From: a virus
Taxonomy: Duplodnaviria; Heunggongvirae; Uroviricota; Caudoviricetes
IMG/VR virus record: IMGVR_UViG_2529292906_000020
Location: 1-22,254 of that record
Strand: one strand, 5' to 3'
Length of the DNA stretch: 22,254 nt
Position 1 is the stretch's first letter; every line of letters begins with the position of its first letter. Of the stretch, positions 1,495 to 12,961 are shown piece after piece. The notes beneath the pieces were generated by a model. It was not told the DNA's origin and made no database searches. It saw nothing but the letters and a program-made list of their open reading frames with translations. The position numbers and the translations under genes were made by a program.

Positions 1495-1505
1495 GTCCAT
1501 AAGAA

Positions 1506-1525
1506 AGCCCCTCCGGAGAGGGGCT
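1506..1525. repeat. Perfect palindromic hairpin AGCCCCTC-CGGA-GAGGGGCT (8-bp stem, 4-nt loop)
   Basis: Perfect inverted repeat read directly; no flanking U-tract on either strand, so not a canonical terminator. Confidence 0.5.
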
Positions 1526-1721
1526 GGAGAGTGGCGCTATGTGCCATTGCATGGTGCCGGGTGCCTCCCGGTGAATTCAGTACCAGCACCTGAATCCGCG
1601 ATTATCCCATATACCTACTCGCTGATTGCCCCTCCGCACAGGGGGATTCACCATGCCAGTTTCTTTTAACAAACTCCCCGCAAAACAGACAACTGTCAAC
1701 CGTCTGAATTGTGAGACATTT

Positions 1722-1747
1722 AAAAAAAAGGCCCGCAAAAGCGAGCC
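1722..1747 (-). terminator. Rho-independent terminator after the tRNA cluster (minus strand)
   Basis: On minus strand GGCUCGC-UUUU-GCGGGCC (7-bp stem with one G.U) followed by U8 (plus A-run 1722-1729). Confidence 0.6.
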
Positions 1748-1761
1748 AGGGAAAATAAGTG

Positions 1762-1838
1762 TGGCGCGTTGTACTGGATTCGAACCAGTGACCGATTGCT
1801 TAGAAGGCAATTGCTCTGTCCGGCTGAGCTAACAACGC
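1762..1838 (-). tRNA. tRNA-Arg (anticodon TCT)
   Basis: Manual cloverleaf: acceptor GCGTTGT/ACAACGC, D-stem GCTC/GAGC, anticodon stem ATTGC/GCAAT with loop CTTCTAA, T-arm ACTGG-TTCGAAT-CCAGT, encoded CCA; 77 nt. Confidence 0.85.
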
Positions 1839-1851
1839 AGGGTACAGATAA

Positions 1852-1928
1852 TGGACCGCCATCGAGGACTCGAACCCCGCGCAACCAGCTTCGAAGGCTG
1901 GCGCTCTATCCTGATGAGCTAATGGCGG
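1852..1928 (-). tRNA. tRNA-Arg (anticodon TCG as read from loop CTTCGAA)
   Basis: Manual cloverleaf: acceptor CCGCCAT/ATGGCGG, D-stem GCTC/GAGC, anticodon stem CCAGC/GCTGG, T-loop TTCGAGT, encoded CCA; 77 nt. Confidence 0.75.
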
Positions 1929-1935
1929 TATGTGA

Positions 1936-2011
1936 TGGTGGCCCTTGCTGGATTTGAACCAGCGACCTGGCGATTATGAGTCGCTCGCTCTCACCACTGA
2001 GCTAAAGGGCC
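1936..2011 (-). tRNA. tRNA with CAT anticodon (Met or lysidine-modified Ile2, ileZ-like in phage context)
   Basis: Manual cloverleaf: acceptor GGCCCTT/AAGGGCC, D-stem GCTC/GAGC, anticodon loop CTCATAA, T-arm GCTGG-TTCAAAT-CCAGC, encoded CCA; 76 nt. Confidence 0.8.
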
Positions 2012-7281: not shown

Positions 7282-8678
7282 AATAAACGCTCCGTTTTAC
7301 TGCCCGACATGCGGTTATTGCTGTATCTGCGCGGATTGCCCGGCGTCATGGGTGTGGAAAGAACCCGGGCACTCTCCTGGTCCACAGGCAGAAAATGTCC
7401 GTTATGAAAACGCCGGTAAATGGTCCCGAGTGTGCCATTACGCTGTTTCGTGATGTTGATTTCTGCTATGCCTCTGGCCTGTGTATCCGGGTTATACACC
7501 TCATCCCTGTAAAGCATCAGAATGATGTCGGCATCAGCCTCTATTTCCCCGGAGTTTTTCAGGTCTGAGTTCATGGGACGTTTATTGGGTCTGGATTCCA
7601 CGCCTCGGGAGAGCTGGCTCAGAGCAATCAGCGGGAAACCGCCGGATTTTGCCAGGCTTTTAAGTCCCTTTGAGATTTCCCCCACAGCAAGGTCGTGACG
7701 CCCCGTGCTGCGGGTTTTAATCAGACCGAGGTAATCGACCACCACCAGCGCCGTTTCCGGGTGTTTCATCCGGTGGTGCTTCGTGGTTGCACATATCTCA
7801 TCAATGGTCAGGTTTGCCTGATCCACCATCCAGATATTACGCCCCGTCATTCGTCCCACGCCCTGCGAGAAACGCGCCCAGTCTTCATCTTCAAAACGGG
7901 CAACAGACTTAAGACGGGATACCGGCATTCCACCGGCAGCAGACACCATACGTTCACCAATCTGGATGTTCGCCATCTCCATGGTGAACAGAAGCACGCC
8001 ATGCCCCTGCTCAGTCACCTTGTCGATGATGTCCAGCGCAAGTTCGGTTTTCCCCATCGAAGGACGGGCGGCAATGAATACCAGGTCACCGGGCTCCATA
8101 CCGCCCGTTTTTGCGTCCAGTTCATCAATACCGGTCATCAGCGCCCTGGATTTCTCCAGTCCCTGATTGCGGCATTCAACACGGTCGACCACTTCCGGAA
8201 GGACATCATCAATGTGAACCGGCTGAATGACGCCCTTTCCGGTCGACAGTGAGGCCATCATGTTCTGCACATCCTTCAGGGCATCCTCGGCTGCTTCACA
8301 GGTATACGCATCACGTAAATTCTGTAATGCTTCAGTCAGTGTTTTTTCTGCATCGCGCAGTGCGGCATTGCGCCGCAACGCTGCGACATAGTGCTCCAGT
8401 GAAGACTTCACCCAGGTTTTGCGTCCGGTGTCGGTAATCACCGGGGCAAGTTCCGGCATCTCATTGCACAGCAGTACGGGGTCAATGACGCCGGATATGC
8501 GAGCCTGTCTGCAAATCCCCGCGTAAATATCCCGGTACTGACGCACAAAAAATACATCCGCCGGAAGTGTGGCCAGAATATCCATCACTTCCGGATCGGC
8601 CCCACGCAGAAAAAACGCACCGATGACAGCGCCTTCCAGGTCATCGTTACGCCATGCCGGGGTGTTCTGGCTGGTCAT
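7278..8678 (-). CDS. Replicative DNA helicase, DnaB-like
   Basis: 466 aa; Walker A IAARPSMGKTELAL as in DnaB family; start ATG overlaps stop of upstream gene. Confidence 0.85.
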   Translation of the reverse strand: MTSQNTPAWRNDDLEGAVIGAFFLRGADPEVMDILATLPADVFFVRQYRDIYAGICRQARISGVIDPVLLCNEMPELAPVITDTGRKTWVKSSLEHYVAALRRNAALRDAEKTLTEALQNLRDAYTCEAAEDALKDVQNMMASLSTGKGVIQPVHIDDVLPEVVDRVECRNQGLEKSRALMTGIDELDAKTGGMEPGDLVFIAARPSMGKTELALDIIDKVTEQGHGVLLFTMEMANIQIGERMVSAAGGMPVSRLKSVARFEDEDWARFSQGVGRMTGRNIWMVDQANLTIDEICATTKHHRMKHPETALVVVDYLGLIKTRSTGRHDLAVGEISKGLKSLAKSGGFPLIALSQLSRGVESRPNKRPMNSDLKNSGEIEADADIILMLYRDEVYNPDTQARGIAEINITKQRNGTLGTIYRRFHNGHFLPVDQESARVLSTPMTPGNPRRYSNNRMSGSKTERLF

Positions 8679-9583
8679 GCGGCAACACCTCCGATACGAG
8701 AACGGTAGCTGGGCCAGTTAAACGACAACCAGTTGCGCCCGCCATCGGTGATCCTGTCGGCAATCCGGGGACTGATGAACGCCCACAATTCTTCCGGTGA
8801 AAGGTTGCTGATCAGGATAGTTGGCAAAATACCCTCATACCGGGCATTGATAATTTCCTGCAAAATGGCCATTTCAGCCGCACTGCCAAACTGAACGCCG
8901 ACTTCGTCGACAATCAGCAAATCCAGTGACGCATAATGCTCAATGACGTCATCCGCTGTTTTTTCACTGTCATTCCGCCAGCAGTTTTTCACAGCCCGGG
9001 TAAGGCGCATCACGTCGGTGATCTCCACACTGGCCAGATAGTTACGGATGATGTGTTTTGCCATTGATACCGCCAGATGATTTTTCCCGGTACCGCAACT
9101 GCCGGTCATAACAAGACTGGTACCGTTCTCCAGCATATCTGGCCAGTTCTCCGCATAGCGGCGACAGGCCGCAAGATTTCTGGCTGCGTCAGGATTAACC
9201 TCCAGATAATTATCAAACTCGCAGTCCCGAAAACGCAGAGCAATTCCGGCGTTATCAGTCAGTTCTTCCGCCTTGAGGGACGACAGTTCCATGGTCAAAT
9301 CACTGGCCTCAGCGATCAAGCAGTCAGGGCAGCATGAAATTTTTTCTCTGTCCTCGCCATTACGATCGATCCACACCAGTATATGCGTACGATATTTACC
9401 GTGTTTTTCGCAATATCCGCGACCTTCACGCATCAGGCAGGAACGATAAGGCCATGGCTTTTCGCCCTTCTGAGCAAATGCAATCTCTGCCCGTAACTCA
9501 TCCATTTCTGCCCGTAACTCATCCATTCGCGCCTGTAGTCTTGTTTGTTTCTCACGTTGGTCAATCGTCATCATCGCTGTCAC
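8675..9583 (-). CDS. Helicase loader, DnaC/IstB-like AAA+ ATPase
   Basis: 302 aa; Walker A MTGSCGTGKNHLA and Walker B LLIVDEVG. Confidence 0.8.
   Translation of the reverse strand: MTAMMTIDQREKQTRLQARMDELRAEMDELRAEIAFAQKGEKPWPYRSCLMREGRGYCEKHGKYRTHILVWIDRNGEDREKISCCPDCLIAEASDLTMELSSLKAEELTDNAGIALRFRDCEFDNYLEVNPDAARNLAACRRYAENWPDMLENGTSLVMTGSCGTGKNHLAVSMAKHIIRNYLASVEITDVMRLTRAVKNCWRNDSEKTADDVIEHYASLDLLIVDEVGVQFGSAAEMAILQEIINARYEGILPTILISNLSPEELWAFISPRIADRITDGGRNWLSFNWPSYRSRIGGVAA
9486..9527. repeat. Perfect 21-bp tandem duplication (TCTGCCCGTAACTCATCCATT x2) inside the DnaC-like gene
   Basis: Two identical adjacent 21-mers; in-frame, encoding the duplicated heptapeptide seen as MDELRAEMDELRAE. 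Confidence 0.9.
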
Positions 9584-9584
9584 C

Positions 9585-10577
9585 TCAGAATGTCAATTTG
9601 TTACTGGATTTACCGAATTTGTCAGACATGGCTCCCAGGCCAGCCAGGACATCGACCTGTCGCTGTCGCCCACCTCCGTGAGCGGCTGGCTGTTGCCAGT
9701 AATCTTCGAAGTGACGATCGGGTCCAAAGAACGTCGCAGCCTGCTTCACGAACTGTGTGCCGGTATTTCCTGTAGCACGTACCCAGGCGGCATACCGCTT
9801 CACGCCATCAAGCATGGTCTCCGGTTTTATTCCCTCCCTGATACGGGCTTTCCAGGCTTTGAAGGCTGCTGACTTGGAATTGCCACCAGCACGTTTGGGA
9901 TATTCCTGCCAGGCCTGTTCAAATTCCGGTGAATATTCCTGTCGGGCAGAACGCGCTGGCGCAGACGCGTCAGCGGATGCATCAATAGTGTTTTTAGTCT
10001 CCGTTGTAATCTCTGTAGTAATCTCTGTATTTGTATCAACATTCGGCGTATCCCCTGTTCCGTTATGACGTCGGGGGGTGTTCCGTTTTAACGTAATAGC
10101 TGTATCGCTGATTGCATTATTGCTGTTACTTTCTGGCGAAACAGAAGAAGGTGTGGTGATGGCCGCAATTGCCTGTGGGTTGATCCCGACAAACAAAATA
10201 TTGCTGCATTTCACCCCATCGAGCATTTCCACCGTGCGTAAATCCAGAGTAATAAACCCTGCATCGCGCAGACGCTTCAGCGCATCTGCGGTTTCCCTTT
10301 TCCCGAAACCAAACTGCTCAGCAAACGCCTGGTAGCTTCTTTGCAGTTTGTCGCCCTGAAAACGCTTGCGATATCCCAGCAACGCTCCGGTGTGCTCATC
10401 CCTGACCTCTGTCGGGCGGTACCAGTAAACGATCTCTGAAAGCAGAGCGATAGCCGTCGCATCCGGACGCCCACTGGGTAGTCGAATATATTTCCACCAG
10501 TTCGCAGGTGTAACATTGCCGGAAATATTAATTTGACCAATAGCCATAACTTCCGGTGTGGGGGCGTAACGGCTCAT
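9585..10577 (-). CDS. Replication initiator / replisome organiser (lambda O or P22 gp18 functional analogue)
   Basis: 330 aa; position immediately upstream of DnaC-like/DnaB-like genes; low-complexity linker with internal DNA repeats typical of an origin embedded in the initiator gene. Confidence 0.6.
   Translation of the reverse strand: MSRYAPTPEVMAIGQINISGNVTPANWWKYIRLPSGRPDATAIALLSEIVYWYRPTEVRDEHTGALLGYRKRFQGDKLQRSYQAFAEQFGFGKRETADALKRLRDAGFITLDLRTVEMLDGVKCSNILFVGINPQAIAAITTPSSVSPESNSNNAISDTAITLKRNTPRRHNGTGDTPNVDTNTEITTEITTETKNTIDASADASAPARSARQEYSPEFEQAWQEYPKRAGGNSKSAAFKAWKARIREGIKPETMLDGVKRYAAWVRATGNTGTQFVKQAATFFGPDRHFEDYWQQPAAHGGGRQRQVDVLAGLGAMSDKFGKSSNKLTF
9960..10130. repeat. Iteron-like repeat cluster and A+T-rich stretch (putative phage origin) inside the initiator gene
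   Basis: Perfect 12-bp tandem repeat GTAATCTCTGTA x2 at 10006-10029; two copies of TGTTCCGTT within about 40 bp; followed by A+T-rich sequence. Confidence 0.45.
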
Positions 10578-11094: not shown

Positions 11095-11285
11095 GGACGC
11101 ACCTCCACCGTAGTTACGTATTTAACCGGGCTACCTTTCATTGAGATGGTTTCACACATCTCTGCCGCTTTCAGTTCCGCTGTTTTTCTGGATTTATAGC
11201 GACGGTGCCAGACAGATACATCCGTGCGAACTGATACATCGTTTCTGTATTCCGTAGTGGAGATGATGATTTCGTAACTAATCAT
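11091..11285 (-). CDS. Hypothetical phage protein (64 aa)
   Basis: Start overlaps stop of Rha-like gene; coupled operon member. Confidence 0.4.
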   Translation of the reverse strand: MISYEIIISTTEYRNDVSVRTDVSVWHRRYKSRKTAELKAAEMCETISMKGSPVKYVTTVEVRP

Positions 11286-11845
11286 GGGCGAACCTCCTTG
11301 TCAGAACCATTCAGCCTGGAATCAACAAGTGCAGCGCCAAAAACAGCATCACCAACACGGTCGTACAGTTTGCTAGCCAGCGGAGATTCAACGGCCTTAA
11401 GCATTGGATAAAGCTGGCTTGTCCAGATTTGATGGATTTCACGCAAATGCAGGTATACGCCTCTGGCGTTTCGTGCGACAGCTGACATATCAGACGCATC
11501 GGCACCTGATAAACTCTTCTCCATCAGGTTAAAGGCGTTGATGTATGCCTCTTTGAACCGGGCAGCACGTTTACCAGTGAAGCCCATGGCAAGAAACGCA
11601 AAACCGTCGCGGGTGATTTGGTAACAAGGGAGCTTGCGTGTACCACCGTTCGGTTGATTTACCGAAATCGATGTCTCCGCAAAATTGCGGGCACAAAACT
11701 CAGGGGAACAATCCAGAGTGCGGATCTTTTTCAGCACATCGTCATGACGCTTGGAGAAGAAGTTGGCAACAGCCAAAGAAGTGGTAACGGCCTGGCCGTT
11801 GTCAATGGTGATTTCAGGTTGAGTGAGGGCTGGGATCGTAGCCAT
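11282..11845 (-). CDS. Rha-family phage regulatory protein (187 aa from the SD-supported start)
   Basis: ATG at 11845-11843 preceded by GGAGG at 8-nt spacing; ITIDNGQAVTTSLAVANFFSKRHDDVLKKIR...YQITRDGFAFLAMGFTGKRAARFKEAYINAFNLME matches the Rha/Bro-N-like pattern; the in-frame extension to 12145 has no SD. Confidence 0.65.
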   Translation of the reverse strand: MATIPALTQPEITIDNGQAVTTSLAVANFFSKRHDDVLKKIRTLDCSPEFCARNFAETSISVNQPNGGTRKLPCYQITRDGFAFLAMGFTGKRAARFKEAYINAFNLMEKSLSGADASDMSAVARNARGVYLHLREIHQIWTSQLYPMLKAVESPLASKLYDRVGDAVFGAALVDSRLNGSDKEVRP

Positions 11846-12010
11846 GATGGCAGCCTCCGTTGACAGTGAAAAACTTCCACCACCGGAAACGCCAATTTCA
11901 CTGGTGGTGAACTGGACGGGGTTGGCGTAACCGGCGTCAACGGAGACCGGCGCACCTTTCGGTGCCCCCGCCCAGCCCACCATAATCTGGATGTGAGCAA
12001 ATGCGGACGA

Positions 12011-12031
12011 TAAAAAAGACGCTGACGCGTC
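12011..12031 (-). terminator. Weak Rho-independent terminator (tR1-like) in the leader between the 235-aa gene and the Rha gene
   Basis: Minus strand GACGC-GUCA-GCGUC followed by UUUUUUA. Confidence 0.35.
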
Positions 12032-12168
12032 ATACATCGCCGTTGACAATTTCAGGACGCCAATCCCGGCACCCGCTTTATAAGGTGCGGAGACAGTGTA
12101 ACGTCCCGAAATTGCAGAATCAATATTTGGTCTTGAAATGATCATATAGCTGCTGATATCTTTAGAAC

Positions 12169-12255
12169 TGTTCTTGGATGTTTCGGAGCCGTTTTATGCG
12201 AAACAGCTCCCCGTTATTGATGTTGAGTGAGCCGGGTTACTCCCGGCTTTTTTTC
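12169..12255 (+). ncRNA. Candidate small antisense RNA (lambda oop-like), about 85 nt, two hairpins ending in a Rho-independent terminator
   Basis: Plus-strand -35 TTGAAA (12133-12138), 18-bp spacer, -10 TATCTT (12157-12162); hairpin GGAGCCGTTT/AAACAGCTCC; terminal hairpin AGCCGGG-TTACT-CCCGGCT plus T7 abutting the stop of the convergent 235-aa gene; no plus-strand CDS here. Confidence 0.4.
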
Positions 12256-12961
12256 ATCGCTGCCAACCAATAACCTGAAATAACCCCATTTTCGGGTGAT
12301 ACCAGCGAGTCCCTCGCGGTTCTGCTTCCTCCATAACCCGATAAAAAGCAGCCATAAACGGTTCCACAGCAACAATTGCGCGACGTGACAACAATCCGTC
12401 CGGCGTCATGAACTCATGTGTGTCTGTAGGAATTTGATAGGCGTTCACCAGATTGCGGCATTTATCATCTGACAAACCGGTTTTTGCTTTCAGTTGGCGA
12501 TATCCGGCATAGCCCTCACGAATAGTGCCCTTTTTAATTTGCTCGACTGTTTCAGCAACGTGGCTGACTTTTTCTTCCACCTGAGTGATCCGTTTCTGTT
12601 GGCGAACGGCTTCAAGAGCCATCGCGGCAACCATTTCGATTTCGCTCATTGGCTTACGGATCTGTTCTTCCAGTTCGCGCCAGCGATCTACCAGGCGAGC
12701 TGTGAATTCAGGACAGAGCTGTGCGACGACAATGATGCTGTCGCGCTTACCTCGTTCACCTTCGAATACATACGCGCTAGAAAATCGGCGAGGCCCAAGT
12801 GATTGTTTATTCTCAATTTCCACAGTCTGTGGAAATTGGATGATTCCCTTTTTAGCCAGTGTTTCAATAGTTCTCTTAACACTATCTGGTCGGCTTCCCA
12901 CCAACTCTGCGATCTCAACGCTGGTCATGGATGCTTTGCCGTTAAAAATTGCGGTGTTCAT
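12254..12961 (-). CDS. Phage regulatory protein with Rha/ORF6N-like winged-helix N-terminal domain (235 aa)
   Basis: AGGAGA 7 nt upstream of ATG; N-terminus MTSVEIAELVGSRPDSVKRTIETLAKKGII resembles Rha/ORF6N DNA-binding domains. Confidence 0.5.
   Translation of the reverse strand: MNTAIFNGKASMTSVEIAELVGSRPDSVKRTIETLAKKGIIQFPQTVEIENKQSLGPRRFSSAYVFEGERGKRDSIIVVAQLCPEFTARLVDRWRELEEQIRKPMSEIEMVAAMALEAVRQQKRITQVEEKVSHVAETVEQIKKGTIREGYAGYRQLKAKTGLSDDKCRNLVNAYQIPTDTHEFMTPDGLLSRRAIVAVEPFMAAFYRVMEEAEPRGTRWYHPKMGLFQVIGWQR

Follow-up and report, generated by a model that had tools for sequence, protein, structure and literature searches.

The c4 and c4-a1b1 RNAs have been described previously (PMC2864571). 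In the immI region of phages P1 and P7, organized as c4-icd-ant (for P1, Citron & Schuster 1990 and Riedel et al. 1993, cited in PMC8201110), the a' and b' sequences of C4 face a1 and b1 boxes located upstream and a2 and b2 boxes that lie over the ribosome binding site of the first ORF. This arrangement controls the antirepressor, and its specificity is set by the sequences of the boxes. In P4, the elements are arranged as PLE-seqA-CI RNA-seqC-kil (Deho, Ghisotti et al., via PMC3632133 and PMC4825925), and the outcome known from the literature is termination-based. In Gifsy-1, IsrK activates translation of orf45/anrP in trans and a stable RNA, STnc1160, is found downstream (PMC4825925). A short ORF lying over the Gifsy-1 C4 element is translated (PMC4825925, Hershko-Shalev et al. 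2016), and the nucleotide sequence of orf45 is conserved while its amino-acid sequence is not (PMC4825925). IsrK corresponds to seqA and C4 to CI, and such pairs were already noted in lambdoid prophages (PMC3632133).

Here we analyzed a 22,254-nt stretch of viral DNA (hereafter referred to as the window) with a focus on the 400-bp interval between two genes that the original prediction had called Rha-like. We consider it highly likely that this interval holds a regulatory cassette made of RNA only, of the kind known as seqA-CI-seqC in P4, c4 in P1 and isrK in Gifsy-1. The conclusion is based on matches to RNA families, covariation of RNA structure, three-way covariation of pairing boxes, overlap of one of these boxes with a Shine-Dalgarno (SD) sequence and the lack of protein-level constraint. 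The locus is a known type of element mis-annotated as a protein.

Organization of the locus

The locus is part of an E. coli lambdoid prophage and is 99.9% identical to that of strain 100416. The order of genes is: LexA-like cI, a cro-like gene, Rha1, the interval, Rha2, small ORFs, a replication initiator and a helicase loader. The replication genes downstream of Rha2 are located at 9585-10577 and 8675-9583. The first "Rha-like" gene (12254-12961, minus strand) matches Phage_pRha with 25.6 bits, which is under the Pfam cut-off of 29.9; its PHROG matches are to anti-repressor Ant families, and it lies in the cII position, immediately behind the cro-like gene.

The second gene (11282..11845, minus strand) codes for a 187-aa Rha-domain protein. 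It matches Pfam Phage_pRha with 96.3 bits, TIGR02681, and both Rha and anti-repressor families of PHROGs, and it is presumably an antirepressor. Its ATG (11845-11843) follows a GGAGG (11858-11854) after a spacer of 8 nt, in agreement with the strong SD predicted originally, and the data support this ATG as the regulated start. The reading frame was also predicted to stay open for 100 codons further upstream, to an ATG devoid of SD, and to encode a segment rich in Ala, Gly and Ser. This was indeed the case. The long ORF (11282..12145, minus strand, 287 aa) is open from the ATG at 12145-12143; GGAG, GAGG and AGGA are absent from the 20 nt 5' of this ATG (aaagatatcagcagctat); and Ala, Gly and Ser together make up 43% of the extension, compared to 26% of the Rha body. 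A tRNA scan revealed no tRNA within the interval.

An IsrK/SeqA-like RNA with a putative promoter and an intrinsic terminator

An Rfam scan of the window revealed two adjacent matches on the same strand within the interval, isrK and C4, both over the gathering score. The isrK match (RF01394; 12012..12088, minus strand) scored 61.6 bits (gathering score, 50) and ends in an intrinsic terminator. The RNA has the IsrK layout: hairpin 1; hairpin 2, whose loop holds box a1 (TTGGCGT, 12063-12057, minus strand); single-stranded box b1 (TGTCAACGG, 12048-12040, minus strand); and the terminator. Hairpin 1 covaries across 15 loci. The Rfam c4-a1b1 model (RF03163) scored 23.9 bits at 12101-12049, under its gathering score of 46.7, although both boxes, a1 and b1, do occur in the sequence.

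The terminator consists of a 5-bp hairpin (GACGC-GTCA-GCGTC, stem at 12031-12018) followed by T6 at 12017-12012. It was recovered by a terminator scan, confirming the minus-strand hairpin predicted at 12011-12031, and the evidence supports a real intrinsic terminator of the leaky type. The isrK match thus ends, at its 3' side, with the hairpin previously referred to as "tR1-like".

Upstream, a putative σ70 promoter equivalent to Gifsy-1 PisrK and P4 PLE was located at 12095..12123 (minus strand) by inspection of the sequence and its conservation. It consists of a −35 element TTGATT (12123-12118), a 17-nt spacer and a −10 element TACACT (12100-12095), with a predicted transcription start at about 12088. 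Both hexamers are invariant in 44 distinct relatives, the conserved block begins exactly at the −35 element, and the site aligns with the mapped PisrK region of Gifsy-1 and with P4 PLE. Since only 8 of 12 positions match the consensus, the promoter was not listed by a promoter scan.

The interval had also been predicted to contain a promoter for an antisense sRNA, and a promoter-like sequence, TTGAAA-18-TATCTT with a TG, was found on the plus strand at 12133-12162. Its −35 element is back to back with the −35 element of the isrK promoter, 10 bp away. A strong intrinsic terminator on the same strand (12229-12249, followed by T7) extends with its T-run into the stop codon (12254-12256) of the first Rha gene. 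The promoter-like sequence and this terminator would together yield an RNA of about 85 nt with the position and orientation of lambda OOP. Both are kept in locus L036, which is 80% identical overall and has an indel in the loop of the terminator. A weak match to sroD (24.5 bits) was rejected as merely the hairpin of this plus-strand terminator.

A C4/CI-like RNA downstream of the IsrK-like RNA

The second Rfam match, C4 (RF01695; 11900..11987, minus strand), scored 81.4 bits (gathering score, 45) and covers model positions 1-87 of 87. A 17-bp closing stem, formed by pairing of 11982-11966 with 11921-11905, encloses two hairpins. The first is located at 11965-11952; the second carries a 12-nt loop, b' (TCTCCGTTGACG, 11946-11935). 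The joint, a', is ACGCCAA (11928-11922), and the tRNA-like stem is followed by a 3' tail, ACCA (11905-11902). Compensatory, both-sided changes were found in 13 of the 27 pairs across 15 loci, with at most one broken cell per pair.

The C4 stem has an AUG at its 5' base (11981..11983, minus strand). This AUG is the equivalent of the Gifsy-1 orf45 start, and an AUG is present at the equivalent position of C4 in all 15 loci. In the window, this AUG is in frame with ATG 11845, with 46 stop-free codons between them.

Pairing boxes vary in concert and one covers the SD of Rha2

Sequence b' is complementary to b1 and to a second box, b2 (TGTCAACGGAGG, 11854..11865, minus strand), while a' is complementary to a1 and to a second box, a2 (TTGGCGT, 11889..11895, minus strand). 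Box b2 includes the GGAGG SD of ATG 11845. The C4 pairing architecture, with a1/b1 upstream and a2/b2 downstream over the ribosome binding site of the first ORF, is present in the interval.

The significance of the matches was evaluated with mononucleotide shuffles of the flanks (200,000 trials). Pairing of b' with b2 involves 10 Watson-Crick pairs, or 12 pairs when G-U is included, and 22 of the 200,000 shuffles were as good. The four box matches were reached by 612, 22, 2986 and 2758 shuffles, and no shuffle reached all four jointly. The fold of the 259-nt leader has a z-score of −5.3 relative to shuffles, with the SD paired in cis with the b' region.

The boxes vary between phages in a coordinated manner. 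Five b variants and two a variants were found in 44 distinct close relatives, and each change affects three sites in concert: the box within IsrK, the loop or joint of C4, and the site next to the SD. In 15 diverse loci, at least 13 b variants and 6 a variants were found, matched throughout, and b2 abuts the downstream SD in every case.

The cassette is portable

Relatives of the cassette were collected as 80 IMG/VR loci found with the translated extension (tblastn), nucleotide-selected phage loci, Gifsy-1 and P4 (individual loci are referred to below by L numbers). With the extension as a query, tblastn matched 570 viral contigs. In 12 further phage loci and in Gifsy-1, isrK is followed by C4 at a distance of 23-25 nt. 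In P4, the gap is 107 nt, and the two Rfam matches are seqA and CI RNA. In every locus scanned, isrK precedes C4. The N15 cA region also turned up in the searches; the cA-icd-ant immunity of N15 is of the same type.

The conserved block extends from the −35 element (~12124) to about 8 codons past ATG 11845, with the boundary near 11821-11838. The genes that follow the cassette differ from locus to locus and include several Rha types, a 77-aa protein, Ant, ORF6N (AnrP) and the Icd-like Kil of P4. We therefore conclude that the cassette is a portable unit rather than the N-terminus of one protein family. It is matched in 3139 of 5426 complete E. coli genomes, in which "ash family protein" is its prevailing label.

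The first ~12 codons of Rha (MATIPALTQPEI, window 11845-11810, minus strand) resemble the start of P4 kil (MATTLTPSHPEF, L084 8365-8330, minus strand). This likeness, together with the identity of the SD-to-ATG sequence, places a recombination boundary of the cassette inside the coding sequence. In most relatives, the same frame is open for 116 codons further 5', between cII and the isrK promoter (379-738 in L085; a corresponding ~320 nt in most IMG/VR loci, L033 and L080 among them). The ATG of this continuation overlaps the cII stop, and the ~320-nt stretch is conserved. It was rejected as a coding sequence: the distribution of variable sites over codon positions is flat (52/78/63), and the alignment contains 1-nt indels.

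Comparison with described systems

The Gifsy-1 isrK-orf45-anrP region has the same order of elements as the window: a promoter, IsrK with a leaky terminator, a C4-like element (STnc1160/orf45) and an antirepressor-like gene with a masked SD. Both have the same a box, TTGGCGT, and both have an AUG at the base of the C4 stem. The b boxes differ, TCACCG in Gifsy-1 and GTCAACGG in the window. The downstream gene is of the ORF6N type in Gifsy-1 and of the Rha type in the window, and the cassette is located after Q in Gifsy-1 but between cro/Rha1 and the replication genes in the window. Owing to a net 4-nt difference in length, the Gifsy-1 uORF over C4 is not in frame with the gene that follows, and orf45 ends in a +1-frame AUGA overlap (PMC4825925). 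In the window, a short uORF of this type with an AUGA overlap is absent, and the frame opened by AUG 11983 runs into ATG 11845 without a stop.

In P4, seqA matches isrK, CI RNA matches C4, and the cassette is located upstream of replication functions, as in the window. The P4 sequence from the SD to the start codon (GGAGGCTGCCATCATGGCTAC) is identical to that of the window, and the first codons (MAT...) are similar. P4 differs in having 83 extra nt between the terminator and CI, in its a and b boxes and in its first downstream gene, which codes for a 65-aa Icd-like Kil and not for a Rha protein.

The RNA of P1/P7 immI belongs to the same family, RF01695, according to the Rfam model and the literature (PMC8201110). 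The pairing logic is the same, and box sequences would set the specificity in the window as well. P1 and P7 have a separate icd; the window has no separate icd ORF, and its antirepressor-like gene is of the Rha type.

Proposed switch

The following scheme, in which transcription from the internal promoter, processing of C4, repression, activation and Rho polarity are all modelled on the described systems, would explain the function of the cassette. The internal promoter (12123-12095) would start transcription near 12088. Most transcripts would end at the leaky terminator (12031-12012), producing an IsrK/SeqA-like sRNA of about 77 nt that displays a1 and b1 and may bind Hfq. Read-through transcripts, and probably also pR transcripts coming from cro and the first Rha gene, would extend through C4 (11987-11900). 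Sequences b' and a' would then pair with b2 and a2 of the same or another mRNA. By analogy with the known systems, C4 may be excised by RNase P and other enzymes into a stable ~80-nt repressor, which after such processing would act in trans.

With the GGAGG of ATG 11845 lying inside b2, this pairing would block translation of Rha2. The untranslated mRNA would be prone to Rho-dependent termination, as in P1 icd/ant and P4 kil/t_imm, and such polarity could plausibly reduce the expression of genes further along the transcript, both the small genes and those for replication (9585-10577 and 8675-9583). The nature of the outcome, a translational block, termination or both, is adopted from P1, P4 and Gifsy-1. 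Since IsrK shares its a and b boxes with the mRNA, it would compete for C4 or open the cis structure, turning translation on; such trans activation is read here from the sequence identity of a1/b1 and a2/b2.

Ribosomes might, in addition, read through the cassette. According to this reading, the RNA cassette operates as described, but translation starting at AUG 11983, or further upstream on pR transcripts, would melt C4, providing an immunity-insensitive route, and would produce an N-terminally extended Rha isoform. Three diverged lineages, namely the window type, the L085-L087 type and P4, have no stop in the gene frame anywhere in the cassette, so translation through the RNA element is conceivable. 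The in-frame, stop-free arrangement of AUG 11983 and ATG 11845 is shared by the L002, L035, L036, L080, L085-L087 and L089 types and by P4, and in Gifsy-1 translation of orf45 is needed for anrP expression (PMC4825925). However, no SD precedes either 11983 or 12145, amino-acid constraint is absent, and the uORFs of other lineages are short and out of frame. With a GC content of 53% overall and 66% in C4, a single open frame of ~93 codons is unremarkable, and frame +1 has a single stop. We regard the joint operation of the cassette and such read-through as distinctly unlikely. That a subfamily deliberately keeps its cassette stop-free, so that read-through from AUG 11983 or on pR transcripts breaks the antisense structure, appears unlikely as well. 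If true, deliberate read-through would bypass RNA immunity in lytic growth and would yield an extended Rha isoform, similar to P1 Ant1/Ant2.

The "Ash" extension is not conserved as a protein

Existing annotation treats the extension (11846..12145, minus strand) as coding. PGAP annotates the long CDS as WP_052922616.1. The Pfam family Phage_ASH (PF10554, cut-off 26) matches the extension end to end, with 63.9 bits for the extension alone and 74.7 bits for the long ORF. PHROGs families include the segment as well, the ORF is open from 12145, 570 viral contigs are matched by tblastn, the gene frame is open in 80 of 80 fetched IMG/VR loci, and "Rha/Ash domain" proteins are named in the literature (PMC8951638). 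All this would be expected of a genuine 287-aa protein in which an N-terminal "Ash" domain is fused to a Rha domain, as PGAP and Pfam have it.

The pattern of substitutions is nevertheless not that of a protein-coding sequence. Variable sites are distributed over the three codon positions as 34/27/28 in the extension, without the excess at third positions, versus 22/16/36 in Rha. Pairwise omega is 0.71-1.06 in the leader versus 0.27-0.43 in Rha. Amino-acid identity in the leader is lower than nucleotide identity, and amino acids alter wherever the RNA boxes covary. The start codon, which in the window lacks an SD, is not conserved: it is found at −348, −69, −45 or −42 from the anchor, outside the conserved block. 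A putative promoter and a terminator are located inside the supposed domain.

The open frames of the 80 IMG/VR loci were discounted because these loci had been chosen by tblastn, which favours open frames; in frame tests, the set was replaced by nucleotide-selected phage loci. Stops in all three frames were found in the distant relatives L088, L090 (VT2-Sakai), L091 and L092, and Gifsy-1 has a stop in the gene frame. In P4, the 83-nt insertion shifts the IsrK part to a frame different from that used in the window.

The Pfam match itself traces to an obsolete ORF. PF10554 also matches a 137-aa P4 ORF that overlaps CI RNA and is annotated as "put. ash gene" in GenBank X02534 and as "cI gene product" in X51522. 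P4 epsilon belongs to PF25738 and not to PF10554. Given this origin, and with the codon-position, omega and frame tests all contrary, the Phage_ASH match was rejected as evidence of coding, and a genuine fusion protein is very improbable.

Protein-level conservation of the extension among homologs was the point on which the original prediction was said to depend. The segment is indeed widely matched, by Pfam, by PGAP and in hundreds of contigs, but judged from the sequences its conservation is at the RNA/DNA level and not at the protein level. The view that the 100 codons upstream do not encode a conserved protein thus holds, given an omega close to 1, flat codon positions and frame breaks.

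The interval had been interpreted as a regulatory leader analogous to the lambda cro-cII interval. Matches to isrK and C4 and the box covariation agree with an RNA leader, but not with one of the cro-cII/tR1 type. A lambda-type leader, i.e., an untranslated cro-to-cII-like stretch whose tR1-analogue terminator is overcome by an N-type antiterminator, is hardly credible: the interval does lie downstream of cro in the rightward early operon and upstream of replication genes, and a terminator is present, but this terminator is intrinsic and ends an sRNA gene that has a conserved putative promoter inside the interval, boxA-like sites are not above chance (20 matches versus 17 expected; on the minus strand, no match outside CDS falls between cro and the terminator), and the block is a mobile cassette that is also present in the non-lambdoid P4 and after Q in Gifsy-1. 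Lambda tR1 is a Rho-dependent terminator.

Consequences for annotation

With the interval read as an RNA-only cassette, PF10554 and the PGAP "ash family protein" appear to be conceptual translations of the IsrK-C4 RNA cassette and not a protein domain. The "Ash" family owes its name to an obsolete P4 annotation, "put. ash gene (aa 1-137)" (L084 8168-8584, minus strand). P4 epsilon, which is sometimes called Ash, is a member of the different family mentioned above. PF10554 has also served as the P4 epsilon profile (PMC8628076), but it did not match P4 epsilon here.

"Rha/Ash" proteins have been described for Eru6/7/9 Shiga-toxin phages (PMC8951638), and L085, among the loci examined here, is the Eru6 reference. 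If Ash is an RNA cassette, the SD-supported ATG is probably the start of these proteins. An RNA-based control with hypervariable specificity boxes would then be present in many Stx-type and related prophages. Placed between the cI/cro switch and the antirepressor-like and replication genes, such control would bear on prophage induction and toxin release.

Other elements in the window

A match to the STnc100 sRNA (139 bits; 1495-2011, minus strand) adjoins tRNA genes Arg-TCT, Arg-TCG and Met-CAT, a cluster of the kind seen in late regions of Stx-type phages. An ALIL pseudoknot (121.5 bits; 20021-20137, plus strand) was also matched. This is the frameshift element of an IS3-family insertion sequence, which indicates an IS copy in that part of the window.
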